Assembly: GCA_026415655.1 (NCBI GenBank)
Contig: JAOAGR010000002.1
Span: forward strand, 64,094 to 128,093
Direction of reading: 5' to 3'
Length of the DNA stretch: 64,000 bases
From: Candidatus Dojkabacteria bacterium
GTDB lineage: Bacteria > Patescibacteriota > Dojkabacteria > JAOAGR01
In this document: one piece after another, positions 2,482 through 20,905 of the stretch
How positions within the stretch are numbered: position 1 is the first letter of the stretch
How the letters are laid out: each line of letters starts with the position of its first letter
The notes under the pieces: model-generated
Told to the model about the DNA's origin: nothing
Database searches by the model: none
Seen by the model: the letters and a program-made list of their open reading frames with translations, nothing else
Program-made: the position numbers and the translations under genes

Positions 2482-2489
2482 GTGCATTT

Positions 2490-2516: not shown

Positions 2517-2643
2517 TTAGCTAATATTGAAAAGTATACATTACTTATTTTATTAGTTTGATTTTTGGCTTAGTTAAAATTACAAAAGTATTTAATTAAA
2601 CAGCTTTAATTTGATATTTAATTTCTGATAAAATGCATAAATT

Positions 2644-3540: not shown

Positions 3541-3582
3541 AGTGTGATAATTATAATTCTAAAAATATATTTTTACGATACC

Positions 3583-4521
3583 ATGTCTAATAAAAAGTTC
3601 TGTATCTTTGGTCCTAGTTATAAAGGTGAAAGATCGCGTTCTATACATCTTATTTATGATGCGGCAAAAAGGATGGGATTGGATGTATATGTTTTACCAA
3701 AACGTAAATTATTAGGTTATATAGATGAAAATGGTATATTTAAATTCAGATCCCTAGATCCTGATATTGTTTTAGACGAGATAGATGTTTTTTATTTTCG
3801 TATGGTTACGGGTATTATTGATGGTAGGACTAAGGCAAGGTATAGGATTTTTCCTGAGATGATTACTTTTGCAAAATATTTGCATTTTCAACTTGGCAAG
3901 AAGGTATATGACTCTTTTCTTTTAAGGCCTGATCCTAACTTTACAAAAATTACTAATATGTATTTATTATCCCAGAATGGTATACCAAATATACAAACGT
4001 GGTTTTTTCTAAACAAAAAACAGGTACTTAAACATTTACATTTCATTAAGTTTCCTATCATAATAAAACCAGCAAATGGTACACAGGGTAGGGGAGTCAA
4101 AAGATTTGATACTAAAGAAGAATTTATTGAATATTTGAAGAATGAAGAAAGTATAATTTTCTATCCTAATATCATCCAAACAGCAATAGAAAATGATGGA
4201 GATTATAGACTTGTTGTAATAGGTGATCAGGTAGTGGCTGCACTGTGGAAAAAGCGCGATCCAAATAAAATAGTTGCAAATATGAGTCAAGGAAATAATG
4301 CAATACCTATCAAACCCGATAAAGAACTCGAAGAACTAGCAGTAAAGTCAGCAAAAATACTTGGAATAGATTTTGCAGGTGTTGATATTATCGAAGATAA
4401 AATTACAGGAAAAAGATATGTTTTAGAGGTAAATTTGTCACCGCAGATATTTTATAGTACAAAGTATAGCAATGTAAGTATTGCAGAGGAATTTGTCAAA
4501 TTTATCATTGAGAAGTCATAA
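3583..4521 (+). CDS. Second, more divergent RimK-like ATP-grasp ligase
   Basis: 'GDYRLVVIGDQVVAALWKKRDPNKIVANMSQGNNA', 'FAGVDII' and 'YVLEVNLSPQ' follow the ATP-grasp/RimK C-terminal pattern. The ORF-track start at 3544 is a GTG abutting the divergent gene, so the ATG at 3583 (MSNKKF...) is preferred. Confidence 0.7.
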   Translation: MSNKKFCIFGPSYKGERSRSIHLIYDAAKRMGLDVYVLPKRKLLGYIDENGIFKFRSLDPDIVLDEIDVFYFRMVTGIIDGRTKARYRIFPEMITFAKYLHFQLGKKVYDSFLLRPDPNFTKITNMYLLSQNGIPNIQTWFFLNKKQVLKHLHFIKFPIIIKPANGTQGRGVKRFDTKEEFIEYLKNEESIIFYPNIIQTAIENDGDYRLVVIGDQVVAALWKKRDPNKIVANMSQGNNAIPIKPDKELEELAVKSAKILGIDFAGVDIIEDKITGKRYVLEVNLSPQIFYSTKYSNVSIAEEFVKFIIEKS

Positions 4522-4541
4522 ATAAATTCATACAAAATTTG

Positions 4542-5072
4542 TTATAGATAATAAACTGATATTTCTGATCTTGGTACAGTATTGAGAATATCCGATGTCC
4601 TATGATTTAATCCTCTGTAGTTAACCAATACAAATGTATAAGTATTTCTATTGTCTAATAGTTTGTGAACTGCACTAAATAGCGTGGTGGTTTGTTCTGG
4701 AGTTAATTTAGGAATCCATGTTTGTGACTGTTCTCCAAAATATTCCATTGAGTCATGTGTCAGGTTAAAACCAGTTTCATTTGGCAGCGGTTGTCTATTT
4801 AAGTTGTTCAAATCGACATAATGTTGATGTACACCACTTAGCCTTGGGAATCTTCCTGCTCTATTTGGCTCTATACACCGATGTGGTATCACCAATATAT
4901 TAACTTGTCCTTTGTTAGTACTAGAAAATTCTTTGTATAATATCAGAGCAGTTTTTGAATCTTGCTTTCTATAATTGATGTTGAATATATAATACATGGT
5001 TATGTACATACAAAGTGTAACATATAAAAATTTATTTGTCGTTGAACATCCTCTATTATTTGGTACCGACAA
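4542..5072 (-). CDS. Hypothetical protein with weak HIT-like nucleotide hydrolase/transferase resemblance
   Basis: 'NILVIPHRCIE' resembles the HIT 'LVIPKKHI' segment. 'GVHQHYV' is only a partial H-x-H-x-H motif. The 5' end overlaps the start of the next + gene by 77 bp, so the true start is probably internal. Confidence 0.3.
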   Translation of the reverse strand: MSVPNNRGCSTTNKFLYVTLCMYITMYYIFNINYRKQDSKTALILYKEFSSTNKGQVNILVIPHRCIEPNRAGRFPRLSGVHQHYVDLNNLNRQPLPNETGFNLTHDSMEYFGEQSQTWIPKLTPEQTTTLFSAVHKLLDNRNTYTFVLVNYRGLNHRTSDILNTVPRSEISVYYL

Positions 5073-6429
5073 GAAGTATCTGTGTAAGTTTCATAAACAT
5101 AAACTGATTTTTTTACGTGCGGTTTTGAGAGCAAAGTATGATGAGTATCTCAATAAATTTGGACCAGATAGAGTCAAATATATTGAGTTTCATGAATATG
5201 ATGATGAATCTTTTTTTGCTAGATTAGCATCTCAAAGGTTAGAATATGAAGACACAGTTGATTTTGAACTAGAGCGAAGATTAAGGTTTTATGCAAAAAA
5301 ATATTGTATTGAACTAGTCAAGAGACCTAATCCATCATTTATTACGTCTGAATCTGATATCGAGGATTACCTCAATACCACAAATAATAAAAAATTTTTC
5401 CTTACTCATTTTTATATTTGGCAGAGGAAACGGCTAGGATTGCTTATGGACGGTCAAAAACCGCTCGGTGGCAAATGGACTTTTGATCAACAGAATAGAA
5501 AGAAAATCCCTAAAAATATTGATTTGCCCAGACATCTGAAACTAGAAATAAATAAATATATCGAAGAGGCAAAAACCTATGTACAAAAATATTTTTCTGA
5601 TAATCCCGGTGATATAGACAACTTTGGTTATGCTGTCACCAGAGAAGATGCGTTGAGAATATTAGATTATTTTTTTGAATACAATATACAAAGTTTCGGA
5701 CCGTATCAGGATGCTATCGATACACGAGATGATTATTGGTTTCATTCGGTTATTTCACCTTATCTAAATATAGGGTTGATCACGATACAAGATGTATTGA
5801 ATAGACTTAGTCAATATTTTGACATCAGATACATTGCTTCATTTGAAGGTTTCCTACGGCAAATCATTGGTTGGCGAGAATTCATACGAATGGTCTACCT
5901 CAAGAAGGGAGTAAAAGTCAGAAATGGTAATTTTTTTAATCATAAAAATAAGCTACCCAAGTTTTTTTATACAGGTGATTCAGGGATTATACCACTTGAT
6001 GATGTAATAAAAAAAGTCAATAAAATAGCTTATGCTCATCATATAGAGAGGCTTATGATATTAGGTAATTTCATGTTGCTAATGGAGGTGGATCCCGATG
6101 AGGTGTATCGCTGGTTTATGGAGATGTTTATTGATGCTTATGACTGGGTGATGGTGCCCAATGTGTATAGTATGAGTCAATATGCTGATGGAGGATTAAT
6201 CACTACAAAACCTTATTTTTCTGGTTCAAATTATATACTTAAAATGTCAAATTATAAAAAAGGAGAATGGTGTGATATCTGGGATGGATTGTTTTGGAGA
6301 TTCGTATACAAAAATAAAGAATTTTTATCTAAAAATATACTAGTAGGAGCGATAACCAGACGCGATATCAATCTGGTCAAAGATAAAATTGTGAAGGCAG
6401 AAAGATTTCTGGCTAAATGTTATAGTTAG
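4996..6429 (+). CDS. Cryptochrome/photolyase-related protein (deoxyribodipyrimidine photolyase-related, COG3046-like)
   Basis: 477 aa. 'GGKWTFDQQNRKKIP' and the overall length/arrangement match my memory of the DPRP family. The start is uncertain because of the overlap with the upstream minus ORF. Confidence 0.5.
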   Translation: MVMYIQSVTYKNLFVVEHPLLFGTDKKYLCKFHKHKLIFLRAVLRAKYDEYLNKFGPDRVKYIEFHEYDDESFFARLASQRLEYEDTVDFELERRLRFYAKKYCIELVKRPNPSFITSESDIEDYLNTTNNKKFFLTHFYIWQRKRLGLLMDGQKPLGGKWTFDQQNRKKIPKNIDLPRHLKLEINKYIEEAKTYVQKYFSDNPGDIDNFGYAVTREDALRILDYFFEYNIQSFGPYQDAIDTRDDYWFHSVISPYLNIGLITIQDVLNRLSQYFDIRYIASFEGFLRQIIGWREFIRMVYLKKGVKVRNGNFFNHKNKLPKFFYTGDSGIIPLDDVIKKVNKIAYAHHIERLMILGNFMLLMEVDPDEVYRWFMEMFIDAYDWVMVPNVYSMSQYADGGLITTKPYFSGSNYILKMSNYKKGEWCDIWDGLFWRFVYKNKEFLSKNILVGAITRRDINLVKDKIVKAERFLAKCYS

Positions 6430-6491
6430 GTTTTGAGTTTATAAAGTTCCCAATGATAAGGATATAGATATCTCTCTAGGCTATACATATT

Positions 6492-7034
6492 TTAAATGAT
6501 TTCGATTTTTTGACGGATCTTATCTGATTGAACAGGAAAAACAAACATAGGGGATTTGGGGTTAAAGGTGTTAATTATGTATTTGGGCTTCGTGTCAATT
6601 ATATTGTCTAGAAAACTGATTACCATTTTCTCATCTGTATAACCAGGTGTGTTTAGTGGATATTGGTAGACGTATTTATCCATACTCACACGTTTTGAGA
6701 AGAAGAATACTGATCCTTCAGCTCCCCATATAAGGATTCGGTCATGCAGTTCCGTAATTCTTACGATTTCATCGACAATAGTGGTTTTGATATTTATCTT
6801 ATGTAGTTCATTAATATAGGAAAGATAATTTTGGACATTAAGTAAAAATATTATCCCAATAATACTAATGCTCAGAAAGAATTTTGTGGTGACTTTATTC
6901 CTATCAATTTGAGATAATATATTATGATATATTTCTGATAATGTTTTTGCGGTAAGTATAGTAAATGTCGGTATCAAAACCATATAATAGTGATAAAATG
7001 CTCGGTCCGAAAGAGATATAAGCATTAGTTCCAC
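6492..7034 (-). CDS. C-terminal portion of the same GT39-like glycosyltransferase, separated by one in-frame TAA (possible pseudogene or split gene)
   Basis: Starts at GTG 7034-7032, exactly one codon after the TAA of the upstream ORF and in the same frame. Two further TM helices are followed by a soluble domain. The combined length of about 480 aa is typical for this family. Confidence 0.45.
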   Translation of the reverse strand: MELMLISLSDRAFYHYYMVLIPTFTILTAKTLSEIYHNILSQIDRNKVTTKFFLSISIIGIIFLLNVQNYLSYINELHKINIKTTIVDEIVRITELHDRILIWGAEGSVFFFSKRVSMDKYVYQYPLNTPGYTDEKMVISFLDNIIDTKPKYIINTFNPKSPMFVFPVQSDKIRQKIEII

Positions 7035-7037
7035 AGG

Positions 7038-7940
7038 TTAATTTATTAGGGATAAAAAGAGTATTGGGTGTCTAAATTTGTTTTTTAAAAAAAGTATATA
7101 CAAAAATCCTGTTAAGGAGAGTAATAATATTCCGGTGTCTTGCATTCGCACTAGACCCACCAGTATAGGATAGGATCTAGATAACTCCTGTGTCTCTATA
7201 CTAGAATATACAAAGTTGAAATGAAAATTCGCATCGTAGTATTCATTTAAGGAATTGTGACTCAGAAAAAATAAGTGCCAAAAAATGAAATTCAGAAAAA
7301 CGCCAATTCCTATTGACCCAATTTGTAAGATAAATTCTTTTGCTGTTTGTTTATTGATTTTTGATAAGAATTGAAATAGGAAATACAGCCCCACAGCAAT
7401 CCATATACCAATCGCAGTTTGTTTGGTAAAGAACGCTAAACCACCTAAAATTCCAATCAAAAATAAAATTTTCTTATTTTTGTTATGCGAATATTTGTGA
7501 AAGAGATAGATTCCTAATACCTGAAACAAAATAGTATATTCTGTAGTAAGATTTCCGCCTTCTAGTGCAAAAAAGAGAGTTATTGATGCGATACATATTG
7601 CAATGAGAGAAGTTTGTTTATCAAATATCGTGCTAACTAATTTGTGTAATAGTATAAAAGAGCTAAAAATGAATATAAGTTGGATGATCCAGACACCCCA
7701 ATGTTCATTTATTAGCAGACCTAGCGCGTTTAGGTAAAATATTATAGGTGGTTTGTGATCCCATACGTCTCTGTAAGGGATTTCTCCCTCTAAGATACGC
7801 CATCCTATGTACATAAATAGACCAGAATCGCGCAAAGTGTGTGTCATGAAATTAGGGTGTAAGGGCATCATAACCATCATCGAAAATATAAAGATTAACA
7901 ACTTATCCCCAATATGGTTGATGATCTTTTTTATTTTCAT
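7038..7940 (-). CDS. Glycosyltransferase family 39/83 (PMT/ArnT-like) membrane protein, N-terminal transmembrane portion
   Basis: 300 aa and polytopic. 'EIPYRDVWDHKPPIIFYLNA' resembles the ArnT/PMT-type first-loop motif. It ends at TAA 7038-7040, in frame with the next ORF. Confidence 0.55.
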   Translation of the reverse strand: MKIKKIINHIGDKLLIFIFSMMVMMPLHPNFMTHTLRDSGLFMYIGWRILEGEIPYRDVWDHKPPIIFYLNALGLLINEHWGVWIIQLIFIFSSFILLHKLVSTIFDKQTSLIAICIASITLFFALEGGNLTTEYTILFQVLGIYLFHKYSHNKNKKILFLIGILGGLAFFTKQTAIGIWIAVGLYFLFQFLSKINKQTAKEFILQIGSIGIGVFLNFIFWHLFFLSHNSLNEYYDANFHFNFVYSSIETQELSRSYPILVGLVRMQDTGILLLSLTGFLYILFLKNKFRHPILFLSLIN

Positions 7941-9205
7941 TATTGTTTGTAGTTTTTAATGATTATACTAATTTCACTATTTAGTCTGCGACTCTCAAAA
8001 AGTTTTTCAAGTTCGTCCTGATTGCTGATGTATTCTCTGACCACTTTGTTACCGAATAGGTATATATTTATTTTGTTATTGATGAATCCTGGTTGTGCTA
8101 GAGCAAATCCTCTGTATATTCGGTGTAAAAGTTGGTTTGTAGAATTTTTAGTCTTATTTAGAATTCTAGCTTTATTTAAAAATTGTTTTATGTTTTCTAA
8201 ATATTCATAAACAAAATATACAGGATAATTTTCAGCCAAGATTAGGGCGATTATACGTAAATAATATTTAATATTTATTAAATATTCAGATATATATTGT
8301 TCTAAAACTTTATCTTCAACATATGTTGCTATACCTTCTTCAACTAAAAATTCTTCATAAGAAGTGATAAGTCCGTTTATCCTAAAATAAGAATTATTAA
8401 TTTTTGTTCGTGTTGATTTATAGGCTCTATATATATGACCTTGTACTTCATGCTCAATTGTTTTTTGTAGATTAAAGTCATTAGAATGATATATCTTTGG
8501 TATCCTTATAGATCTACGGAGTGAATTGACTGATAAATTATGTTTTTCTGTAAAAATAAACTTATATCTTTTTCTAGGTATACCTAGATCGCGCATCTTT
8601 TGTTTTATCAATTGTTTGATATGTTGACCTGAAAACTCCCGTGATGTCAAAAAGCTTTTCTGGGCAAGCAAAATACATTCAGGATTTATTAATACTTTTA
8701 TATTTCCAATTTCATCTGTTTTATACAAATCGTATGATAGGTATTTTTTATCAATATCTATTTTTGTAAATTCATGGATAATCTTTAGTATTTGTATCCA
8801 CTCACTAACAAATATGTTTTTGAGTTTTTGTGGAAGTCTTGGGTATAAAGATTCATGGAGTTCTTTGTTTTTGATTATGTAATCATCAAAGGTTATATAC
8901 TTGGTTAAATACTCGATATTTAGAATGTTGATCCCTATATTTGTAATTATTCTCTGTATCAGATCATGATATAGATTGTAGGGGAATGTTTTGGGTATCT
9001 TCTCTTTAAGTTGAAAAAGTTTTTCTTCCTTATTCTTCAGATACCTCAAATAGTATTTAGGATTATGTACAATGATACGTGATTGATATCTGTCCGGTTG
9101 ACTGAAGTTATAGTTAGTATCAGTAATAATATGTCCCTTTTTCGTCTTTGAATATTTTTTAAGCTTTGAATATATCTCTTGATCCTCAAATACGATTTTA
9201 CCCAT
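7940..9205 (-). CDS. Hypothetical protein with a zincin-like 'HEVQGH...EEGIATY' signature (possibly the DUF1704 / QEGLA-motif family)
   Basis: 421 aa. 'TIEHEVQGHIYRAYK' is followed about 30 aa later by 'LVEEGIATYVE'. This resembles the QEGLA-motif proteins that I recall neighbouring RimK-like ligases, but the assignment is from memory only. Confidence 0.4.
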   Translation of the reverse strand: MGKIVFEDQEIYSKLKKYSKTKKGHIITDTNYNFSQPDRYQSRIIVHNPKYYLRYLKNKEEKLFQLKEKIPKTFPYNLYHDLIQRIITNIGINILNIEYLTKYITFDDYIIKNKELHESLYPRLPQKLKNIFVSEWIQILKIIHEFTKIDIDKKYLSYDLYKTDEIGNIKVLINPECILLAQKSFLTSREFSGQHIKQLIKQKMRDLGIPRKRYKFIFTEKHNLSVNSLRRSIRIPKIYHSNDFNLQKTIEHEVQGHIYRAYKSTRTKINNSYFRINGLITSYEEFLVEEGIATYVEDKVLEQYISEYLINIKYYLRIIALILAENYPVYFVYEYLENIKQFLNKARILNKTKNSTNQLLHRIYRGFALAQPGFINNKINIYLFGNKVVREYISNQDELEKLFESRRLNSEISIIIKNYKQ

Positions 9206-9210
9206 TATAT

Positions 9211-10143
9211 TTATTCAATTGATATAAGATATTTTTCTACCTCCAATGCGGCTTTACAACCACTTCCAGCCGCAGTAATAGCTTGTCTATATCTGTGATC
9301 AACTACGTCACCAGCAGCAAATATACCAGGTTTATTAGTAAAAACTTCGTTTTGTGTGACTATGTAGCCTTGTTCATCAGTTTCTAATAAATCTCTGACG
9401 AATTCTGTATTGGGTATATGACCTATTGCTAGAAAAACGCCATCAACTGCTAGTTCTGTTTGGGTATTATCAACTGTTGATTCTAGCACCACCGATCTTA
9501 AAACCTGATCCCCTCTGAACTCTTTTATTGTATTATTCCAGATAATTTCTATCTTGGGATTTTTGAATACCCTATCCTGCATTATTTTGCTTGCTCTAAA
9601 GGCATCACGACGGTGAATGATATAGACTTTTTGAGCCAGTTTTGACAAAAATAGTGCTTCTTCCATGGCTGAGTCACCACCACCAACAACTGCCACCGTT
9701 TTATTTCTATAAAATGCGCCATCACATGTAGCACAGGTAGATACCCCTCGTCCCTTATATTTTTCTTCTGATGGAATCTCTAGCCATCTTGCAGATGCTC
9801 CTGTAGCTATTATCGTTGTCTTTGCAAAAAAAGTTTGGTTTGTATCGGTGATTATTTTTTGTGTCTTAGTAGTTTCGTCATATTCTATTTTAATTACATT
9901 TTCCTCAATGATTTGGCATCCAAATCTTTCTGCCTGTTTTCTCATGTTATCCATTAATTGAGGGCCTAAGATACCTTCAGGAAATCCAGGGAAGTTTTCT
10001 ACTTCGCTTGTAAGCATTAGTTGGCCTCCGCTAATTCTGCCAGATATTAAAATTGGCTCTAGATTTGCTCTAGCTGTATATAGAGCTGCTGTATATCCTG
10101 CGGGACCAGAACCAATAATTATGACGTTTCTAATTCTATTCAT
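9211..10143 (-). CDS. trxB: Thioredoxin-disulfide reductase
   Basis: 'VIIIGSGPAGYTAALYTARA' (FAD-binding), redox-active 'CATCDGAFY' and 'VAVVGGGDSAMEEALFLS' (NADPH site). Confidence 0.9.
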   Translation of the reverse strand: MNRIRNVIIIGSGPAGYTAALYTARANLEPILISGRISGGQLMLTSEVENFPGFPEGILGPQLMDNMRKQAERFGCQIIEENVIKIEYDETTKTQKIITDTNQTFFAKTTIIATGASARWLEIPSEEKYKGRGVSTCATCDGAFYRNKTVAVVGGGDSAMEEALFLSKLAQKVYIIHRRDAFRASKIMQDRVFKNPKIEIIWNNTIKEFRGDQVLRSVVLESTVDNTQTELAVDGVFLAIGHIPNTEFVRDLLETDEQGYIVTQNEVFTNKPGIFAAGDVVDHRYRQAITAAGSGCKAALEVEKYLISIE

Positions 10144-10150
10144 CTTATAA

Positions 10151-10681
10151 TTATATAATAATTTCTTTTAATGCGTTTATTATGTCGCTGAATGTTCTTG
10201 TAAATATTTCTCTGTTATACTTACTTAAGACATAGTCTTTACCTGATATAAATTGTTTTTCTATGTTACTACGTCCATCTATACCTATTCGAATAAAGTT
10301 AAATTGATCAGTTTTGCACTTGGCTATGATGTCTTTTATGCCATTATGACTTTTTGGATACTTACCTTTTTGTATTTTAAATTTGCATTCCTCGATATCT
10401 AAATCGTCAAATACTATAAATATATCTTGGACATCAGGTTTATAAAACTGTTTGATTTCACTGACAGCATTTCCTGATAAATTCATATAAGTCTGGGGTT
10501 TTATCAAATATATTTTTTCACCTTTTGTATTAGTATAACTTATGGTTATCGAATTGAAATCATTTTTTATCTGTTTTTCTGATATTTTTGATGCTAGATA
10601 ATCTATAAAATCAAACCCTATATTGTGTCTTGTACCAGTGTATATAGATCCAGGGTTTCCGAGACCAAAGAAAAATTTCAT
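10151..10681 (-). CDS. pth: Peptidyl-tRNA hydrolase
   Basis: 'MKFFFGLGNPGSIYTGTRHNIGFDFIDYLA' is the classic Pth N-terminus. 176 aa. Confidence 0.9.
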   Translation of the reverse strand: MKFFFGLGNPGSIYTGTRHNIGFDFIDYLASKISEKQIKNDFNSITISYTNTKGEKIYLIKPQTYMNLSGNAVSEIKQFYKPDVQDIFIVFDDLDIEECKFKIQKGKYPKSHNGIKDIIAKCKTDQFNFIRIGIDGRSNIEKQFISGKDYVLSKYNREIFTRTFSDIINALKEIII

Positions 10682-10847
10682 ATCAAAGTATATAAAAATG
10701 GATAAATTATAAACAAGATTGTATAATAAATCATGTTAGATTGGCTAAACAAAATATCAGATAATGAGTTAATATCATATGGAATTTTAGTTATATATTC
10801 TGTTTTTTTTGTTTTTCTTTGTCTTTCTACTCTATTTTGAATTCTAT

Positions 10848-10924
10848 GCATCCGTAGCTCAGTTGGATAGAGCACAACTTTGCGGAAGTTGGGGTCAGAG
10901 GTTCGAGTCCTCTCGGATGCGCCA
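10848..10924 (+). tRNA. tRNA-Arg, anticodon read as GCG (unusual for bacteria), CCA encoded
   Basis: GCATCCGTAGCTCAGTTGGATAGAGCACAACTTTGCGGAAGTTGGGGTCAGAGGTTCGAGTCCTCTCGGATGCGCCA. Acceptor stem GCATCCG/CGGATGC, anticodon stem CAACT/AGTTG, loop TTGCGGA giving G34 C35 G36. Confidence 0.8.
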
Positions 10925-11531
10925 AGTAAATTTATAAATAGATTAGTTTTGTACTAGATTATTTTTCAAAGTCTTGAATAGATATATACATTTAAGTCAG
11001 GTAATTTACCGTATAAAGCTATTATAGAGATGATGTACTTTTGGGAAAGAAAATATTTATGTATATAGGTGATATGTTTTCATATTAATGCATGATGTTT
11101 TTCTCAATATATTTCGAAAATTACTTAGACAACCAATAAATGTTGATAATATTAGGATTATCCAATTATTACTAAATGAGTATGTTAATACCAAAGTAAA
11201 AGGATAGGATCCAAACATGGCACTGTCGATGGGATTGCAGTTGATTTAGTTAGAGATTTTTGAAAAAGTGTTTATTGGAATTGGTTCAGATAATAACATC
11301 GGTTCGAAAAGGCTCGATAATCTATGATTAGAAACAGTAAAAGCTTATAAAAATGGATTATTACAAATAATCGCATTTTAGATAACAATTATATTGTACA
11401 GTTTTGATAAAAATGTTCTTATAAAATTGTATGTGTAACTGTATTGAAAAGCTTACTAAATGATTTACAGTAGATGAAAAGTGTGAGTTTATTTGAATTT
11501 ATTTTTTTTGGATATAATTTTAAAAATATGA

Positions 11532-12851
11532 TTGATCGTGGAAAAGACAGAATCAAAAGTAGGTAACTCACACCGAGGAAATGACGGAAGAGGAGGAATA
11601 TATAGTGTGGTTACTCCATTAAAACGTGTAGCACAGAGAATAACAAATTTTGTTTTATGTGCTCTTATTGGCTTATCCCCTATACATACTCCTGATGGAC
11701 TTCATGAACAGCCGGAAACGTCTGAACAGTATCTGTGTATACGAAATCCCTATTATAGTTATTTTGCGTATAATAGATTGGATCCCAGTCGACGATTTGG
11801 TGATACGGGGGAAATAGCGCAGTTTTCTCCACGTGATCAATATTTTAAAGCTGTTGCCGTAGTATGTGGTGTTATATTTTATGCAGTCATGCCAGACAAT
11901 CATAGTCTTGAAGAGTTAGAGGAAATGACATTGAGCTTCATGGAATCATTACCTTCTTCATTACGTAAAATAGCTTCAAGGGGAGAAAATATTTTTACAG
12001 ATTATGCCTCTACTAGGAGGTATGTTGGATTTCATAACGGTGGAGAAAATTACATTTATGTTTACGGAAAAGACTTTGTGGATAAAGCATCTGTGTTTGC
12101 AATTTTTGCTCACGAATTAGCTCATAGACTTCAAGAAACTAATGCAAGTACTCTTCAAGATTATAACAATCGAATGATAACTTATATGCAGGGATTAAAT
12201 TTAAATGGTGAGGAATATAGGGTCAGAGCTGGTCCTTATGTCCCGATTATTGATGCTGAATCGTACTATAAAGATTATTCCTTTCCAGAACAAACCGTCA
12301 ACCTCGAATTTGGCCCATATCTTATCCAAAATATGGCATACGCGATGTACCAGATTTTACAAACGAAGGAAGAAGGTATAAGTCAAGATGAGATCAAACG
12401 CGAAATAAGTAACGCTATGAGGAAGATTGCTGTCGATATCGTTTTTGGTGAATCGGGGGATTACAATAGAAAATTATCATCGTTACTTGCTATAATTGAG
12501 GCAGAAGAGTGGTTCAAAAATGAGGAAGAACCGGGGTGGAGACATGCATTTAATGCCTTGCGAAGAGGGATAATAGGAAACATTGTTATAGCATATCTGA
12601 ACGACGAGAAGAGTTGGAAACCGTACATTGAAGGTTTACGTAATACATTTCCGGACGTGTATGAAGGGCTAAAATCTGTGATTAGTCGTGCTGAAAATAG
12701 TGAGCAAAGGAGACCGCTGTTCAAACATGGACCTGATGCTCATGTCAGAAGAGATTATTATATGCCTCAGGCAGCTATGCAACGCCGAAATACCCGAATT
12801 ACGGAACTTCAGGGCGATAGAGGGTCACACAAATATACGAGTAGAGGGTAA
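11532..12851 (+). CDS. Putative zinc metalloprotease (HExxH) of unknown family, inside a compositionally atypical (GC-richer) islet
   Basis: 439 aa. 'FAIFAHELAHRLQE' contains HELAH. Local GC of about 40-45% contrasts with about 30% in the flanks. I recognise no other domain. Confidence 0.5.
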   Translation: MIVEKTESKVGNSHRGNDGRGGIYSVVTPLKRVAQRITNFVLCALIGLSPIHTPDGLHEQPETSEQYLCIRNPYYSYFAYNRLDPSRRFGDTGEIAQFSPRDQYFKAVAVVCGVIFYAVMPDNHSLEELEEMTLSFMESLPSSLRKIASRGENIFTDYASTRRYVGFHNGGENYIYVYGKDFVDKASVFAIFAHELAHRLQETNASTLQDYNNRMITYMQGLNLNGEEYRVRAGPYVPIIDAESYYKDYSFPEQTVNLEFGPYLIQNMAYAMYQILQTKEEGISQDEIKREISNAMRKIAVDIVFGESGDYNRKLSSLLAIIEAEEWFKNEEEPGWRHAFNALRRGIIGNIVIAYLNDEKSWKPYIEGLRNTFPDVYEGLKSVISRAENSEQRRPLFKHGPDAHVRRDYYMPQAAMQRRNTRITELQGDRGSHKYTSRG

Positions 12852-13841
12852 ATTTTAATAAGGTATTAGTCACATTAATTTCAGATAATCTGAATAGTTG
12901 TTGATTACTAATTTGAAGATACAAATATCACAAGACTATAGAGATATACTAGAGCCTTGAACATAGAAGAGTCAAAAGGGAGGGTATCAAAATACAACAA
13001 GAAAGTACGAGTATTACGGCATGAGGGTGCAGCATCAATACTGCAGATACGAAAGATACAGATGGTGTAGGTTGTAGCTGATAATTATAAGGATCAGCTG
13101 GTGATCGGATGATAGCTAATAAAAGATAGACGTTATAAGGAGCAATTTAATCAACGATACAGATATATAGACATCGTTATTAATATGTGATATAATTACT
13201 ATACCATGACAGGAGCAAATACAGCATTCGGATTAAATTTGGAACTCGATAGTAGCCGTGCTGATACAGATGATAAGTATATAAGGCTACCAGATCTTTT
13301 GTATATTTTATTTGCAAGCTGTGTCGCTTCGGGTAATGGAGGTCCAACACTTTCTGATAACCCTTTCTATAGGGTGAATTCATGTGTTGAGGATGCCTTC
13401 AGAAATGGTGATTTTTGCCGTCGTTATCCTGATATAATGAGACCGGAAAGCATGCCCGTTGGGGCATTACTGGATGCCCTATCGGGTTTGGTATCAAGGC
13501 TCCGTCTCTCCTCACATCTCTTGATGCAAGGTGACATACAGGGAGTAGATAGTACTCCTTCAAGACAGAGGAGATCGAGCCGCACATGAGATGTTAGAAA
13601 TAACAGAAATGGTAGAACCTCTTTTATTTAAGTAAGAATTTGGTTCTAGTGCACACATACCACATGACCATGTGCATCAAACGGAGACAAAATACTCAAG
13701 TGATTAAGTATAGGTGCATCAACTAGCTAGGAATAAGCATATAAGCGTAAAGAGTGAATGTCTATCAATGTACTCAACATATTCTTCTCAAATCTTTATT
13801 TCTATTGTATACTCACGCAAGTAATATAATAAATACTCATT

Positions 13842-14186
13842 ATGAATACATTAGTGATATCAAAAGTAGAAGAGCCAAGATATAGACATAAGGATGTAGA
13901 CTTTAGAGTAGGAGATACTTTGAGACTAGGATTGAAAGTTAAAGATTCAAAGGAGGGAGAAAGAATACAGTACTTTCAGGGCATTTTGATTAGAGTATCT
14001 GGTTCAGGGCTTAGACAGACTCTTACAGTACGTAAAATCGGTGCCAATAGTATAGGTGTGGAAAAAATTATTCCACTACATTCACCAGTGCTTGATAGTA
14101 TAGAGGTTGTCAAGAGGTCCAAGGTTCGACGAGCTAGATTATATTATATGCGTGATAGAGTAGGTAAAAGTGCCTTAAACGTCTAA
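13842..14186 (+). CDS. rplS: 50S ribosomal protein L19
   Basis: 114 aa. 'FRVGDTLRLGLKVKDSKEGERIQYFQGILI...RKIGANSIGVEKIIPLHSP...RRARLYYMRDRVGK' is a typical L19. Confidence 0.9.
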   Translation: MNTLVISKVEEPRYRHKDVDFRVGDTLRLGLKVKDSKEGERIQYFQGILIRVSGSGLRQTLTVRKIGANSIGVEKIIPLHSPVLDSIEVVKRSKVRRARLYYMRDRVGKSALNV

Positions 14187-14223
14187 GCACTGTTTATTCA
14201 CTGACAATTTTGTATAATTTTTT

Positions 14224-15510
14224 ATGTTTTTTTTGTATGTTATTCGATCTGTTGTTTTCATATTACGTAAATTCAAAATAACCTCTTCAACAGCTTTTCC
14301 TGGTCTTTTAGTGGAAAAATATTTTCCTCATTTGGTGCCTGTTTTATTAAACAAGTTGAAAGATGTGATCGTTATCACAGGTACAAATGGAAAGACAACA
14401 GTTGCTAGTGCTATACATTATATTCTTGAAAATAGTGGGAAAAAATGTTTCATCAATGCTAGTGGCTCAAACATGCTGAGGGGTATTCTTTCTCATATCA
14501 TAATTAATCTTGATAATAAGCTAAATCTTGAGCATGATTATTCTATTTTAGAGCTTGAAGAGGCTACTTTTCCTAAATTAGTGAAATATATAAAACCTAA
14601 ATTAGTGATTGTTACAAATATTTTTCGTGATCAGCTAGATGCATATGGAGAGATAGATAAGACTTTTGCTTATATCAAGGACGGAATTGAAAATTCTAAT
14701 AATCCCACTGTTATATTAAACGCTTCTGATCAGAGACTTGTTCATCTGTACAAGTGTTCGAATCGAGTCATTTCCGTATCTGTGTCAGAAGAGGTTAAGA
14801 AATATTTATTTTTAGAGAGGTATTATGAAAAACCTCAAGAGTTAGATATTCATCCTGATGTTTTTATCCATAATATTGAACAAAAAGATATTGATCATAC
14901 ATTGATCACATTTGAATATAAAAATGAAAAATATGATCTAGAGACTAGCATTCTGGGTTTACATAACGCAATAAATCTGATTTTTGCCTGGTTGGCAGTT
15001 GTACATCTATTAGGTTTTAATGATACCGACAATAAAAGATTTTTAGATATCTTGGGGGATTTCAAGCCTGCTTTTGGTCGTGGTGAGAAAATAAATATTT
15101 CTAATACTGAATTTATCCTAATGCTTGTAAAAAATCCTGCTGGCATGAATATGAATCTCTATTCCTTATCTGATATTATTTCCGCAAATGATGCAATTTT
15201 GTTTATTTTAAATGATAATATAGCTGATGGACGTGACGTATCTTGGATATGGGATTGTGATTTTAATATTGTCAATCGTTTTCAGAACAATGTAATTTTG
15301 GTATCAGGGATTAGAAAAGATGATATAGCACTTAGGATTAGCTATGAAGTAAAAGACAAAGAAATAAAAGTCTTTGATGATTATGAAAAAATATTTGATC
15401 ATATTATGCAAAAAGAATATAAAAGAGTCTTTGTATTGCCAACATATACTGCAATGCTCAGTGTTAGAAAATTTTTATATAGTAAATTAGGTATAAAACA
15501 AAATTTATAA
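14224..15510 (+). CDS. murT: Lipid II isoglutaminyl synthase, Mur-ligase-like subunit
   Basis: 'IVITGTNGKTTVASAIHYIL' is the Mur ligase P-loop. The 428-aa length and the position immediately upstream of a GatD homolog are as in Gram-positive murT-gatD. Confidence 0.8.
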   Translation: MFFLYVIRSVVFILRKFKITSSTAFPGLLVEKYFPHLVPVLLNKLKDVIVITGTNGKTTVASAIHYILENSGKKCFINASGSNMLRGILSHIIINLDNKLNLEHDYSILELEEATFPKLVKYIKPKLVIVTNIFRDQLDAYGEIDKTFAYIKDGIENSNNPTVILNASDQRLVHLYKCSNRVISVSVSEEVKKYLFLERYYEKPQELDIHPDVFIHNIEQKDIDHTLITFEYKNEKYDLETSILGLHNAINLIFAWLAVVHLLGFNDTDNKRFLDILGDFKPAFGRGEKINISNTEFILMLVKNPAGMNMNLYSLSDIISANDAILFILNDNIADGRDVSWIWDCDFNIVNRFQNNVILVSGIRKDDIALRISYEVKDKEIKVFDDYEKIFDHIMQKEYKRVFVLPTYTAMLSVRKFLYSKLGIKQNL

Positions 15511-15514
15511 CACT

Positions 15515-16291
15515 ATGAAAAAGATAAGGATTAATCATCTGTATTCTCAGTCAATGAACATTTATGGTGATATAGGTAATATTAAAGCTCTCTTACACAT
15601 CCTGGATTTACATAACATCCCTTTTGAGATATTTTCAACGGAAATTGGAGATAATAAAGTAAAAGAGGCAGATATATATTTTTTAGGTGGGGGACAAGAC
15701 AAAGACCAATATAGTGTATTTAAAGATCTATTAAGACATAAATCTTTTATATCTGATGAGGTCAAAAAAGATAAGGTGTTTTTACTTATTTGTGGTGGTT
15801 ATCAACTCTTTGGAAAATTTTTTTTAGATGCTGAGGGAAATTTTATTGAAGGGTTGGGTATTTTAGATATCGAGACAAAAGCACCAGATAATAAAGTGAC
15901 ATCAAGATGCATTGGTAATATAGTAGTAAAATTAAATCCTGATTTTATTCAGAGATTTGATATAGATACTTCATTTTCAGATTATATAGTAGGTTTTGAA
16001 AATCATGGCGGACAAACATTTTTCAAAAATGATTCGTTGATTTTTTTAGGTGATGTTATACAAGGATTTGGTAATAACAGTTTTGAAAAAAAAGAAGGAT
16101 GCAATTATAAAGGAATAATAGGTACTTATATGCATGGGTCATTCTTGCCAAAAAATCCTCATATAACCTATGGAATCATCAACCGTGCATTACATAATCA
16201 AAATATCAATGCCATAAAAATGGATAAAACAAAACTAATTTACGAATCAAAAGCTCATAAATACATCCTTAATAAATACCAGATTGTTTAG
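15515..16291 (+). CDS. gatD: Lipid II isoglutaminyl synthase, glutamine amidotransferase subunit
   Basis: 'NIYGDIGNIKAL', 'IYFLGGGQDKDQ', 'LLICGGYQLFGK' (catalytic Cys), 'GLGILD', 'GFENHGGQTF' and 'LPKNPHIT' match S. aureus GatD closely as I remember it. Confidence 0.85.
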   Translation: MKKIRINHLYSQSMNIYGDIGNIKALLHILDLHNIPFEIFSTEIGDNKVKEADIYFLGGGQDKDQYSVFKDLLRHKSFISDEVKKDKVFLLICGGYQLFGKFFLDAEGNFIEGLGILDIETKAPDNKVTSRCIGNIVVKLNPDFIQRFDIDTSFSDYIVGFENHGGQTFFKNDSLIFLGDVIQGFGNNSFEKKEGCNYKGIIGTYMHGSFLPKNPHITYGIINRALHNQNINAIKMDKTKLIYESKAHKYILNKYQIV

Positions 16292-16300
16292 GTTATTATT

Positions 16301-16885
16301 TTATTCTACAAGATGTGAATATTCTTTTTCGTATCTTTCAGCACATTCAGCTAATATTTTTCTTGCTTCTTCTACACCGACAAATCCTTTGCTTACACAA
16401 GTACCTGGCTTTTTTAAATCTTTATAATGTTCCCAATAATATTCAGATTCTTTAATGAAATGTTCACCTAAATCTTCGATACTTTGGATATGATCTACTC
16501 TTTTATCATCATTTAAAACAGCAATTATTTTGTCGTCCACTTCTCCTCCATCTTCAAATCTCATTGCACCGATTATTCTTGCCTCCACTAGTGCTCCCGG
16601 TACGATTGGTTCGGTAACCTCAACAATCATGATATCAAGTGGATCACCATCTAGATCTAATGTTCTTGGTATAGCTCCATAAGTAAATGGATACGCAAGT
16701 GAAGAATATCCAACTCTATCAAGTTTTAGCTGGCCAGATTCTGTGATAATTTCGTATTTGTTTATAGTGCCTTGTTGTATTTCTACTATAGCGTTTACTA
16801 CTCCTGATTCTTCATCAGCATATGGTGATAATACGTGTAAAAGATTTAACTGATATTTTGAAGGTTTGTGGTTTATGTTCGCCAT
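16301..16885 (-). CDS. ppa: Inorganic pyrophosphatase (family I)
   Basis: 'DGDPLDIMIVEV...GALVEARIIGAMRFEDGGEVDDKIIAV' are the PPase signature aspartate clusters. 194 aa. Confidence 0.9.
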   Translation of the reverse strand: MANINHKPSKYQLNLLHVLSPYADEESGVVNAIVEIQQGTINKYEIITESGQLKLDRVGYSSLAYPFTYGAIPRTLDLDGDPLDIMIVEVTEPIVPGALVEARIIGAMRFEDGGEVDDKIIAVLNDDKRVDHIQSIEDLGEHFIKESEYYWEHYKDLKKPGTCVSKGFVGVEEARKILAECAERYEKEYSHLVE

Positions 16886-16950
16886 AATCGTTGAAATTAT
16901 ATAAATCTATAAAAATAAAGTAAATATTTGATATTACATTATTATGAGTT

Positions 16951-17451
16951 TTATCTATATATTCTAAAGATATCTTGCGAATTTATATTTAAAATGGCTT
17001 TATTTGTTTCCAAAAACGATATTTCAATGTTCTTTTTAACGATTTGTTTTGTAGTTTCTTCAAATGATTTTTTATAGTTGTCTTTAAAATCTTCTATTTC
17101 TTTAGGACATGTATTATTTTTACACCTAGGTGATTGTATCGATATCAATTCATAGTTATCAACAATTCCATATACTCTTAATCTATCCTTAAACGTAATA
17201 GAGAAAGAAATTCTTTCGTGTATTTTGACGTTATCTTTGAGATTTATAAATTTGTCGATAGTAGATTTATTAATAATAATCTCTATAGATTCGATACCTG
17301 CATTTTTAGTTTCTTCATTAAGTTCAATCTGCCATTTACCAATGTAAAAATTTGTATCTAAATACAGAAATAATGTAATAATGACTAATACAAAGGATAT
17401 TATAGATCCAAATATTATTTGTATTTTGTATTTTAATATTTTATCAAGCAT
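16951..17451 (-). CDS. Hypothetical membrane-anchored protein
   Basis: 166 aa with a single N-terminal TM segment (IIFGSIISFVLVIITLFLYL). No recognisable motif. Confidence 0.45.
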   Translation of the reverse strand: MLDKILKYKIQIIFGSIISFVLVIITLFLYLDTNFYIGKWQIELNEETKNAGIESIEIIINKSTIDKFINLKDNVKIHERISFSITFKDRLRVYGIVDNYELISIQSPRCKNNTCPKEIEDFKDNYKKSFEETTKQIVKKNIEISFLETNKAILNINSQDIFRIYR

Positions 17452-17460
17452 AATTTCCTT

Positions 17461-18153
17461 ATGGTTTTTAAAATATTAACAATTTTTCCCGAGTTTTATG
17501 AGAGTGTCTTAAAAACTTCTTTACTTGGGAAAAGTATTCAAAAAGGGATTATCAAAATAGAGATCTATAATCTGCGAAGTTGGTCTACTGATAGATCAAT
17601 ACATAAAAAAGTCGATGATAGACCTTATGGTGGTGGTCCAGGGATGATAATGATGATAGAACCTGTTTATAGAGCTCTTAAAGATATACAAAATCAGGAT
17701 CTTAAAAAACAAAAAAAAAGCTGTGTCATAATATTCTCTCCAAAAGGACAGGAGTACAATCAGACCTTTGCATATCATCTAAAAGATAAATATGACGAGA
17801 TAATAATGGTATGTCCACATTATGAAGGATTTGATGAGAGGATTATGTATTTTGCTGACTATGAGATTTCTATAGGAAAATATGTCCTCAGTGGAGGAGA
17901 TATACCTGCTTTGGTTGTTTTAGATAGTGTAGCGAGACTTATACCTGGATTTATGAAAAATCCGGAGTCAATCGTGGATGAATCTTATTCTATAGGGCAG
18001 GGTGAAGATGATTTGACAGAGTATCCCCAATATACTCGTCCTGCAATATTTAGATTAGATGATGGTACTGAGTTAAAAGTACCTGAAATATTACTATCTG
18101 GTGATCATGAAAGAATTAAAAAATGGCGTGAAGGACAAAAAAAGAAGATATAA
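17461..18153 (+). CDS. trmD: tRNA (guanine37-N1)-methyltransferase
   Basis: 'MVFKILTIFPEFYESVLKTSLLGKS' and 'VDDRPYGGGPGMIMMIEPV' are TrmD SPOUT-fold signatures. Confidence 0.9.
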   Translation: MVFKILTIFPEFYESVLKTSLLGKSIQKGIIKIEIYNLRSWSTDRSIHKKVDDRPYGGGPGMIMMIEPVYRALKDIQNQDLKKQKKSCVIIFSPKGQEYNQTFAYHLKDKYDEIIMVCPHYEGFDERIMYFADYEISIGKYVLSGGDIPALVVLDSVARLIPGFMKNPESIVDESYSIGQGEDDLTEYPQYTRPAIFRLDDGTELKVPEILLSGDHERIKKWREGQKKKI

Positions 18154-18207
18154 TGTCATGATTAGTTGTAATAATGGTGACATACTGATTATAATTGATT
18201 CGCTTTT

Positions 18208-19305
18208 ATGGAGTTGATGGAAGAATCTAAAAAGATTGATTTAACTGATGCACAATTAAGCATTTTAAACTTAAATGATGTAATAAATTACATTTTAGGC
18301 AAAAAAGATTACATTATTAATTATGAACGTAATTTGATATCTAAATCAGAAGAAGATGTAGAAAGAGAATTAAGTTTGTTAGAGTCTTTAAGCTATTTAC
18401 ACAATGAATTTTCACATTTAAGAGATAAAACTGTCGTTATTATACCGCCAAAATATGAGCTTTGGGTTTATCTCTGTTTCTCTTTTGTTTTGTTATTTAG
18501 TGGTCTAAAAGTTGTATTTGTATATCACGATTGGGCTTCAGAAGTGATAAAAGGAATTTTTATTGCTGTTGGTGATAAAAACGTAATTTTTAACAATCTC
18601 CAATATGTTCACATCGACAATGTCAAAGATCAAAGTTGGTCTGATCATATAATCTTAAACTTTTACGATGATATTGATAACATAAATAAGAATGTTCCTA
18701 ATTTCTCCACAGGGGTAATATGTCATGATGTAGATTTAGATTATACAATAAATTATGTTTTATCTAGTGTTAAATATTTTGCAGGATTATCAAAAAGTAG
18801 TTTAAAAAGGCTGATTGTCAATTCTAGTATTTATGATGAATTTTTATCTAGAATGAGATCTAAATTCAATCTGCTTACTGGTAGTGTAAAGTCTAAAGTT
18901 ATTTCAAAAAATTTTAAGGATACTATTAATGAATTATATTCAAGTGCAATAGCTGATGGCGCAGATATACTTATAGGAGGAAATATCTACTCGGATGATT
19001 TAGAGATGACAGTATTTACTGATGTAAATATGGATATGCGGATCTATCAAAAAGATTTCTTTGGACCGTTTTTATTGATATTAAAAACAGAAAGCACAGA
19101 CTCTGATATCGAATCACTACTTAGTTTACAACCATCAGATGGTATTCTTCTTTTTACCAAAGATACTTGTAGTTTTGTAGATAATTTACCCGATCAACAA
19201 AACAAGTATAAATTCCTAAAAAGACCAAATAAATTTGATCTGCCATTACATGATCTTTTAGATGCCTATCCTTCTTTGGAATATGCTCTGAAACTTATTT
19301 CTTGA
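18208..19305 (+). CDS. Divergent aldehyde-dehydrogenase-superfamily-like protein (possibly non-catalytic)
   Basis: 'GADILIGG', 'EMTVFTDVNMDMRIYQKDFFGP' and 'ILKTESTDSDIE' resemble the ALDH C-terminal half (GA.ll.GG; PTV..dv...m.i..eEiFGPV). The protein is only 365 aa and I do not see the canonical Cys/Glu catalytic context. Confidence 0.4.
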   Translation: MELMEESKKIDLTDAQLSILNLNDVINYILGKKDYIINYERNLISKSEEDVERELSLLESLSYLHNEFSHLRDKTVVIIPPKYELWVYLCFSFVLLFSGLKVVFVYHDWASEVIKGIFIAVGDKNVIFNNLQYVHIDNVKDQSWSDHIILNFYDDIDNINKNVPNFSTGVICHDVDLDYTINYVLSSVKYFAGLSKSSLKRLIVNSSIYDEFLSRMRSKFNLLTGSVKSKVISKNFKDTINELYSSAIADGADILIGGNIYSDDLEMTVFTDVNMDMRIYQKDFFGPFLLILKTESTDSDIESLLSLQPSDGILLFTKDTCSFVDNLPDQQNKYKFLKRPNKFDLPLHDLLDAYPSLEYALKLIS

Positions 19306-19567
19306 TAACTCTAGGTACTTGGATATATGTACCTTTCATTTGAGGGAATAACTTACTGGATATGGGTCTGTCTTCTCTGAGCTTTGGTAGTCTTACGCGC
19401 TTTCTGTCCAAATCAGAGTTATGTTGATTTAATTTAAAGTTTTTTATCTTATCAAACATGTTTAAAATATTGTTGATGTCAGCTGTGTAGCGTTTAACAT
19501 CGGTAACTCGAATCTTTACTGCATTTAATATCTGATTAAGTTTATTTATATCTATATTTTCTTTCAT
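19295..19567 (-). CDS. Hypothetical small basic protein
   Basis: 90 aa. Overlaps the upstream gene by 4 bp (operonic). No motif recognised. Confidence 0.35.
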   Translation of the reverse strand: MKENIDINKLNQILNAVKIRVTDVKRYTADINNILNMFDKIKNFKLNQHNSDLDRKRVRLPKLREDRPISSKLFPQMKGTYIQVPRVIKK

Positions 19568-20817
19568 ACCTGATATGAATCTGGACTTAATGCCTTTATG
19601 TAGTATATCATTTCTAGAGTACCTAGGTTAGTCTCGGCTTCGCAAATAAATACATAAATTGGATGGATGTATTTCGTATTGGTTATGTCTTCGTAAAAAT
19701 CCAATCTAACACGAAAGACGCCAATAGTTTTTATTTCTTTCAAGTCATCAGAATTTATCTCTGTGTTTGTTTGTTTATTTTTGATTGCAACAACGTATTT
19801 ATCAAAATTTTTTACTAAATCATCATATGCAGCACGTGGCACGATGATACGATAAGTTTGTACATCTTTACTATCTGATTTTATGTCTGATTCATTAATA
19901 GGCCAATTGTGATAGTACATTTCCACGAGATTTGTAGTTATATCTGTACTGTTATTGACTTGTGAAAGAGTAGTAAGCACCAAATAATTTGTACCACCAT
20001 AATAATCCGTATACGCTGCTAAAGCTGGAGCAGGTTTTTCCAAGGCGAGTTTGCTATTAGTTTGATATTTACGTATTGCAGTGATACGATAAAAAACAGT
20101 CTTATTGCTATTTACATCACTATTTAAAATAAATTTTTGAGTTTTCTCATCCCAGATTACAGTATTTACGACAAAGTTATATTCATCTAATTTTTGAGAT
20201 ATGCCTGATTTTGCAAGATAAGCTTCGAATAGACTTTTTAGATTTTCAGATCGTGTTGTATTTGTACCTTCTGTAACAAGAAAACTATCAGGATTTGAGG
20301 TAAATTTATCCCTTAGTTCGTAATTTTTATATCTAATAACAGAATACTTGCCATCTACGTACAATTCTATGTTATCTTTTCTCCATCTGTAGACACTATT
20401 TCCATCAATCAGAGTTTGAGTGCCATCTGATATTTTGAGGTTTTCGGCAATTCGTATGGGTAGAGTTGATGTGTTGATATCTTCTGCTTTTTGTTCGATA
20501 AGAAAGACATTTGCCAAAGCACCAACCTCATATTCTTTTGGATATTGATTGTCTGCGTCAAGATTACCACTTATTGTGTTTATTGAAAAACGTGGGGTAG
20601 AGTTTTTTATCTCAGAAGGTAATTGTAAATATCTTATTTGTATGTTGTTAAGTGGACCAAAACCATACTCAGGTTTATTATCTAGCACTGTTTCGTTGAC
20701 ACGAGTAAATCTTGTGACGATAGTATAATAGGTCAAAAAACCACAACCTATAAATAGTAATATAGATAATGCTACAAAAATCCTTTTCGTGATAAATATG
20801 CTTTTATACAGGGTCAT
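19564..20817 (-). CDS. Hypothetical membrane-anchored extracytoplasmic protein
   Basis: 417 aa with an N-terminal TM segment (IFVALSILLFIGCGFLTYYTIV) and a hydrophilic Asn/Thr-rich remainder. Confidence 0.5.
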   Translation of the reverse strand: MTLYKSIFITKRIFVALSILLFIGCGFLTYYTIVTRFTRVNETVLDNKPEYGFGPLNNIQIRYLQLPSEIKNSTPRFSINTISGNLDADNQYPKEYEVGALANVFLIEQKAEDINTSTLPIRIAENLKISDGTQTLIDGNSVYRWRKDNIELYVDGKYSVIRYKNYELRDKFTSNPDSFLVTEGTNTTRSENLKSLFEAYLAKSGISQKLDEYNFVVNTVIWDEKTQKFILNSDVNSNKTVFYRITAIRKYQTNSKLALEKPAPALAAYTDYYGGTNYLVLTTLSQVNNSTDITTNLVEMYYHNWPINESDIKSDSKDVQTYRIIVPRAAYDDLVKNFDKYVVAIKNKQTNTEINSDDLKEIKTIGVFRVRLDFYEDITNTKYIHPIYVFICEAETNLGTLEMIYYIKALSPDSYQV

Positions 20818-20905
20818 AAATTTATTTTAGCATAAAGAAATAAGAGTACTTTTGTAAAGATTTTTTGAATCTTCGTAATTAGTATTATATTATCATAGTT
20901 AGTTT

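Follow-up and report, generated by a model that had tools for sequence, protein, structure and literature searches.

The gap between a tRNA-Arg gene (anticodon GCG) and rplS (ribosomal protein L19) in the 64,000-nucleotide stretch of Candidatus Dojkabacteria bacterium contig JAOAGR010000002.1 analysed here (the window) is probably an ancestral birth-and-death array of putative membrane-associated zincins and a resident hot spot of gene turnover. At this locus we observed synteny with related contigs, pseudogene homologies, a 909-bp insertion or deletion (indel) between haplotypes, and an absence of mobile-element hallmarks. We propose that the gap may be an old resident hot spot of turnover in a small clade of Patescibacteria (candidate phyla radiation, CPR), holding a tandem array of fast-diverging HExxH...E genes for putative zinc metallopeptidases, several of which would carry an N-terminal hydrophobic anchor or signal sequence. 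Copies would duplicate, diverge and decay, and whole array alleles would be swapped by homologous recombination through the conserved flanks. The array of the window would then consist of an old, AT-drifted pseudogene (10945-11363), an intact open reading frame (ORF) of 439 codons, ORF439, and about 0.9 kb of younger, GC-rich coding wreckage (12858-13766). The phenomenon is of a known kind, and the protein family is unnamed and very narrow.

The features of the interval, in window coordinates, are as follows.

10848-10924, plus strand: tRNA-Arg, anticodon GCG (ARAGORN, Rfam), the conserved left anchor of the variable gap
10945-11363, plus strand: pseudogene A, an eroded HExxH paralogue like the 264-aa gene (L6_264) of the related lineage L006 (tblastn, blastn)
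11493-11518, plus strand: putative promoter-like pair TTGAAT...TATAAT upstream of ORF439 (read from the sequence)
11532-12851, plus strand: ORF439, an orphan putative zincin (ORF calling, motif and alignment reading)
12858-13766, no strand assigned: strain-variable 909-bp segment (blastn, junction reading)
13002-13178, plus strand: putative C-terminal relic of another L6_264-like paralogue, with two in-frame stops (tblastn; significant part 13074-13175)
13168-13196, plus strand: best promoter-like site of the region, TAGACA, 17 nt, TG-TATAAT (11/12 matches), 10 nt before the ATG of ORF127
13206-13589, plus strand: ORF127, a putative coding relic at the GC-richest core of the region, with an unbroken frame in the window alone (indels, codon-like composition)
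13572-13751, plus strand: further putative coding relic in a different frame, with strong period-3 GC of 0.27/0.55/0.28 (phase composition)
13770-13841, plus strand: conserved rplS upstream region, the right anchor of the variable gap (identities to relatives)
13842-14186, plus strand: rplS, a native gene (PF01245 on the called gene)

Directly 3′ of the tRNA, the order is 607 bp without a real ORF, the 439-codon ORF, 990 bp, and rplS at 13842, and between the two anchors only ORF439 and ORF127 reach at least 100 aa. The initial annotation of this stretch had described a GC-rich islet beside the tRNA, and much of that description holds: the tRNA-Arg(GCG) does adjoin the interval, the AT-rich, gene-free stretch of about 600 bp is found at 10925-11531, with no substantial ORF and a guanine-plus-cytosine (GC) content of 0.245 against 0.309 for the window, the 439-aa HELAH protein is encoded at 11532-12851, and the following 1 kb or so (12852-13841) has no stable ORF, since the longest and sole candidate, of 127 codons, is broken by indels in sister strains. 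The word islet is apt only in part, as the most GC-rich 500-nt windows of the 64 kb do fall within 12201-13900 (maximum 0.42; 99th percentile 0.395) and the interval is not uniform, its first 600 bp being below average. Likewise, the GC content of ORF439 is 0.387 and not the 40-45% that had been estimated, although it still ranks highest among the 47 ORFs with 150 aa or more (mean 0.306, standard deviation (sd) 0.032). The sliding GC and tetranucleotide profile is not flat and the anomaly is real, with a peak of tetranucleotide deviation in 1-kb windows at 12751-13750 (z = 4.05, the highest of the 64 kb). The GC excess of ORF439 lies mostly at codon positions 1 and 2 (GC1 0.49, GC2 0.38), while GC3 is 0.29 against a mean of 0.236 (sd 0.033), that is, +1.7 sd. 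In its distance from the window mean of relative synonymous codon usage (RSCU), ORF439 ranks 29th of 46 ORFs, so its codon usage is no outlier and looks native.

In the databases searched, only three lineages with this locus were found: the window together with L001, a syntenic sister haplotype contig (ENA ERZ3623746), then L090, and then L006. L006 is a metagenome-assembled genome (MAG) labelled Saccharibacteria, with a MurT 77% identical to that of the window (82% for L090); NCBI labels the MurT of the window as belonging to a Dojkabacteria MAG, and public records split the clade between Dojkabacteria and Saccharibacteria. The order pth, tRNA-Arg(GCG), variable gap, rplS-murT is common to the window, L001, L090, and L006, with the same tRNA in the same position, and the gap measures 2.9, 2.0, 5.8, and 4.3 kb, respectively. 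DNA similarity between the gaps of different lineages is confined to the tRNA edge and the rplS upstream region, where the window is 98% identical to L001 (13770-14300), 93% to L090 (13785-13841), and 85% to L006 (13782-13841). In L006, the gap holds ORFs of 264 aa (HEIFH), 392 aa (degenerate NESYH), and 131 aa (HEVLH), with a lipobox-bearing ORF of 80 aa directly before the 264-aa gene; in L090, it holds ORFs of 330 aa (HEWMH) and 378 aa (HEGAH) and a 122-aa fragment, and HExxH is intact in five of the seven paralogues of the two lineages. L090 5375-6251 corresponds over its full length to the neighbouring 378-aa gene (E 6e-35) and is a paralogue of it with frameshifts, its HExxH now reading HERAY. 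A weaker relic at L090 6755-6844 resembles the 330-aa gene (E 0.019), and the apparently ORF-free gaps of L090 are thus pseudogenes too. Scanning metagenomes with rplS returned only distant taxa (at most 55% identity) with no useful synteny, and the 78 loci searched locally held no family member. The initial annotation had regarded one gene conserved in this place across the clade as an argument against an insert, and the relatives bear this out halfway, as the gap is occupied by HExxH genes and pseudogenes in all three lineages and the individual genes are beyond BLAST recognition. Because the relatives carry the same kind of patch, we see gene turnover here, not a newly imported island.

When the gap proteins are aligned, the motifs come in the same order: P-S/T first, then a G..Y.G beta-strand, then HExxH, and finally a Glu some 60 residues further on. 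Every member in which HExxH is intact has a Glu in line with Glu259 of ORF439, the candidate third zinc ligand of a gluzincin, in an alignment of low identity. Over the HExxH core, hhalign gave E values of 6e-4 for ORF439 and L90_330, 4e-4 for L6_264 and L90_330, and 3e-3 for ORF439 and L6_264; L90_378 and L90_122 were matched at E 6.5e-12.

To the left of ORF439, a tblastn search of the whole window with L6_264 (L006 3886-4680) matched pseudogene A in three pieces (E 2.5e-9 and 2.6e-7), and blastn against L006 gave 80% identity over 144 nt. In pseudogene A, stops interrupt the frame, the frame itself changes, the middle has been lost to an internal deletion, and the motif now reads HDVFL. This homology to L6_264, with its stops and frame changes, identifies the gene-free AT-rich stretch as an old pseudogene. 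Positions 11062-11500 are about 98% identical in L001, indicating that the decay of pseudogene A predates the haplotype split. Pseudogene relics in fact lie on both sides of ORF439, so the initial annotation was right to call the interval partly eroded.

To the right of ORF439, the 909-bp segment makes the interval strain-variable, being present in the window and in L002, L003, L004, L088, and L089 and absent from the sister haplotype L001, where the stop codon of the ORF439 allele is followed by rplS 82 bp on. Its junctions have no target duplication and no terminal inverted repeat. Within it, 13074-13175 matches the C-terminal 34 residues of L6_264 (tblastn E 0.006, whole-window search space), has period-3 GC in the same frame, and is the only L6_264 match in the 64 kb besides pseudogene A. 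Coding-like period-3 GC and purine signatures occur along the plus strand of the segment in three frames: GC by phase is 0.43-0.50/0.22-0.32/0.35-0.37 over 12912-13211 and 0.48/0.45/0.25 over 13212-13391, where purines are highest at phase 0, as in ORF439. ORF127 has coding-like values too (GC1/GC2/GC3 of 0.50/0.49/0.34) with purine periodicity in frame, and no Pfam match. In L002, L003, and L089, sister strains about 99.7% identical, indels of 1, 4, and 5 nt interrupt its frame. Across five strains of that identity, the differences in 13201-13501 comprise one deletion of 5 nt, one insertion of 4 nt, three indels of 1 nt, and 6 single-nucleotide polymorphisms (SNPs), and these indels account for the broken ORF127 of L002 and L003. 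Six-frame fragments of 12852-13841, concatenated into a protein query, gave no match at E <= 0.1, in a search of uncertain sensitivity that also missed the 76-aa call of L003. A further candidate, 13616-13723 as a C-terminal tail relic, was dropped when the family tail profile gave E 41. Judged from its composition and homology, the 909-bp segment appears to be decayed coding DNA rather than an RNA gene, and the high GC of 13206-13766, compared with the AT-drifted pseudogene A, suggests that decay there is recent.

ORF439 itself probably starts at GTG 11607, 10 nt after GGAGG at 11592-11596, and not at TTG 11532. With that start, hydrophobic segments at aa 37-51 and 104-119 precede the HExxH region, and because there are two of them, the topology is ambiguous; the role as a secreted protease or effector raised in the initial annotation is conjectural. 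HELAH (aa 194-198, nt 12111-12125) is also kept in the allele P0002, and Glu259 (nt 12306-12308) is conserved, while the C-terminal third is variable. A word-indexed search of 5.8 billion proteins returned only its own cluster P0001 (99%) and the allele P0002 (82%, aa 120-438), and a HMMER pass over 1.84 billion representative proteins gave P0002 as the sole match, which agrees with the earlier description of an orphan with a metalloprotease-like HExxH motif. The nearest profiles are sub-threshold, namely Pfam PF20573 (DUF6782) at 19 bits over aa 113-220 (cutoff 27) and, more weakly, PF01435 (Peptidase_M48) at 12.4 bits (cutoff 20.3). Our search of the literature for DUF6782, or for hypervariable metalloproteases in Saccharibacteria, found nothing relevant. 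ORF439 resembles zincin or gluzincin metallopeptidases of the HExxH type in having this motif in a predicted helix after beta-strands, a Glu about 60 residues downstream, and the sub-threshold DUF6782 match; it differs in lying below curated cutoffs, in having no sequence relative in the PDB and no usable model, and in the lack of a homologue outside its own species among the 1.84 billion representatives. From these features, we infer that ORF439 may be a working peptidase acting at the cell envelope. The promoter-like spacer upstream contains a T8 tract (11502-11509), and its length is 14 nt in the window, 20 nt in L089 (T14), and 18 nt in L001 (TAAT insertion). This strain-variable poly-T spacer (near L089 ~630-660 and L001 ~9575-9600) could either work as an on/off switch by strand slippage or reflect noise in the assembly.

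Between the window and L001, ORF439 has a synonymous divergence (dS) of 0.05-0.07 and a nonsynonymous divergence (dN) of 0.075-0.09, giving a dN/dS of 1.28-1.37 compared with 0.12-0.15 for the flanking genes. The amino-acid changes are concentrated towards the C-terminus, with 9/120 in aa 200-319, directly past the HExxH motif, and 39/120 in aa 320-439. ORF439 thus evolves in a relaxed or diversifying manner, and we read it as a gene that is kept open while its sequence can vary freely or is pushed to vary, most of all in the C-terminal third. As a separate possibility, a diversity-generating retroelement target was considered and rejected, as the gap has no reverse transcriptase-like ORF and no internal repeat, and the substitutions are not A-biased.

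The wider comparison with L001 is uneven. The two contigs are 86.2% identical over 1841-12857 and 99.86% identical over 13770-23761, with identical MurT proteins, and they form a recombination mosaic in which the 909-bp segment sits exactly at the breakpoint between the two kinds of stretch. Within the gap, positions 10925-11060 differ by about 25% and 11062-11500 by about 2%; at 11500-11800 the figure is about 20%, with indels that shift the frame, and 11889-12825 differ by about 9% and carry no indel. Further to the left, dS rises leftwards, from 0.11 in pth and 0.21 in trxB to 0.47 in a 421-aa ORF. The pattern of dS and identity points to the import by recombination of a large segment whose end lies at the rplS upstream region.

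Several points weigh against a clade-wide array of functional zincins. The clade-wide claim rests on three lineages, a very small sample. BLASTP finds no link between the HExxH proteins of different lineages, their homology consists of weak pairwise scores, motif order, and position, and no score ties L6_392 or L6_131 to the other members. Given that BLASTP misses the cross-lineage link, membership of the paralogues in one family is probable on the alignments rather than proven. ORF439 reaches no curated family above the Pfam cutoffs and has no match in NCBIfam, PHROGs, PADLOC, or PDB sequences, and the AlphaFold2 models, with a predicted local distance difference test (pLDDT) score of 35.4 at full length (3 sequences) and 38.3 for aa 120-355 (single sequence), are too poor to reveal a zincin fold. 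The 909-bp difference can be read as a deletion in L001 or as a gain in the window, and no parent gene was found for most of 13206-13766. Finally, the dN/dS of ORF439 against L001 is not significantly different from 1, and the L001 copy is frameshifted and has lost its in-frame N-terminus, so ORF439 may be drifting to loss.

This last point leads to an alternative in which ORF439 no longer functions and is a long open relic evolving neutrally in an interval without any present role. Taken by part, dN/dS is 0.95 in the core (aa 120-319) and 1.70 in the C-terminal third, neither significantly different from 1, the substitutions are spread 31:31:22 over the codon positions, and all five SNPs found over its 1320 nt in five near-identical strains (which show no indel) are at codon positions 1 or 2; the frameshift in L001 and a promoter spacer of just 14 nt in the window point the same way. 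However, neutral simulations with the same 84 substitutions left the frame open in only 2.5% of cases, and indels against L001 number 0 in 937 nt of ORF439 and 8 events in the preceding 964 nt. The HExxH, Glu259, and aa 200-319 are also well conserved between the alleles, and the in-frame GTG is preceded by the Shine-Dalgarno-like GGAGG, making a dead ORF439 unlikely in our judgement. An RNA-based explanation of the GC-rich core (~13227-13601), as a structured non-coding RNA peculiar to the strain or a mobile RNA element of the non-autonomous type, seems very unlikely. Three overlapping 150-nt windows there fold better than shuffles (z -3.2, -2.7, and -3.7), GC rises to 0.46 in a 31% GC genome, the best promoter-like site lies just upstream, and, like accessory elements, the stretch can be dispensed with and varies between strains. 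Yet these scores, within the top 1-3% of the window, are matched elsewhere (window-wide 1st percentile -3.07, with ten other windows of the 64 kb at -3.0 or lower), the opposite strand folds equally well (the whole 990 nt has z -2.3 on the plus and -2.4 on the minus strand), and the total of promoter-like sites in the region is not above that of shuffles. Rfam gave no family over 12852-13841 at the gathering threshold or at E <= 10, the composition has a codon-like period of 3, this is the most indel-polymorphic stretch among near-identical strains, and no second copy (in the 64-kb window), terminal repeat, or homologue turned up in anything searched.

The view taken in the initial annotation, that of a foreign islet recently acquired beside the tRNA, partly eroded, with the HExxH protein as imported cargo, draws on the tRNA adjacency, the strongest tetranucleotide and GC anomaly of the window, the orphan protein, and the 909 bp present in one haplotype and absent from the other. 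We find it quite improbable. Neither of the two gap ORFs of at least 100 aa is an integrase or recombinase; the nearest Phage_integrase gene noted is at the left end of L001, some 9.6 kb upstream. As to a direct attachment (att) repeat, the last 45 nt of the tRNA share no k-mer of at least 10 nt with 10925-14300, and its last 16-24 nt have no fuzzy match there either. Phages, plasmids, and IMG/VR viral contigs yielded no similar sequence. The composition is mixed, the anomalous tetranucleotides and GC being offset by the unremarkable RSCU rank and GC3 of ORF439 and by a GC excess at codon positions 1-2, and none of the relatives has an empty site, with gaps of 2.0-5.8 kb in L001, L090, and L006 all occupied by HExxH genes. 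Pseudogene A is common to L001 and homologous to an L006 gene, which means that the array is older than these lineages. There is therefore no support for a horizontally acquired insert specific to one lineage. The locus does resemble tRNA-linked genomic islands in its place directly 3′ of a tRNA, its odd oligonucleotide composition, its strain-variable content, and its decay, but it differs from them in having no integrase, att repeat, mobility genes, or mobile-element match, in being always occupied, and in its native codons. Adjacency to a tRNA, odd composition, and an ORF-free stretch can stem from birth and death in place, with no import required.

A resident array of this kind invites comparison with loci such as vlp and vsa in Mycoplasma, which are tandem families of variable surface proteins in bacteria with reduced genomes. 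Tandem fast-diverging genes, hydrophobic or lipobox-like leaders, pseudogenes alongside, and a strain-variable homopolymer in a promoter spacer are shared with them. The gap differs in that it has no tandem repeats within the proteins, no site-specific recombinase, and a putative catalytic motif, and any switching there is hypothetical; the lipobox occurs only in the 80-aa ORF of L006 and not in ORF439. CPR genomes are tiny, with little room for junk, so where every available lineage keeps, at the same site, 3-6 kb made up of orphan genes and pseudogenes, this patch marks something that the lineage keeps reinventing, plausibly a cell-surface or secreted activity in an arms race. A bolder version, which we put forward tentatively and think unlikely, would make the gap a dedicated diversification locus of episymbiotic CPR bacteria, in which clade-restricted, envelope-anchored zincins under diversifying selection, especially in the C-terminal third, are renewed by duplication, decay, and allele exchange and perhaps switched by poly-T, for interaction with host cells or phages. 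For annotation, ORF439 should be entered as a putative HExxH metallopeptidase of an unnamed family, and 10945-11363 and 12858-13766 should be entered as pseudogene remnants.

Some observations concern the neighbourhood of the locus. On the minus strand at 6426-7940 lies a PMT_2-type glycosyltransferase gene that is a single 504-aa ORF in L002 and is split in the window into ORFs of 300 and 180 aa by two nonsense codons, which replace Ser301 and Lys483. The explanation is either a pseudogene peculiar to this strain or an error in the sequence. Next to trxB, on the minus strand at 7940-9205, the 421-aa ORF encodes an uncharacterised conserved CPR protein. Pfam gives no match to it, L001, L006 (64% aa identity), and L090 all have it, and the two haplotypes diverge rapidly in this gene (88% nucleotide identity, with the dS of 0.47 given above). 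The arginine CGN tRNAs of the window have the anticodons GCG (10848-10924) and TCG (2405-2481). The usual bacterial CGN tRNA-Arg is of the ACG (inosine) type, and the set seen here hints at decoding without TadA, the tadA gene not having been searched for. In both rplS (13824-13842) and ORF127 (13191-13206), only about 10-12 nt separate a TATAAT from the ATG, and a Shine-Dalgarno sequence is lacking, which suggests that mRNAs of this organism may be leaderless or nearly so.

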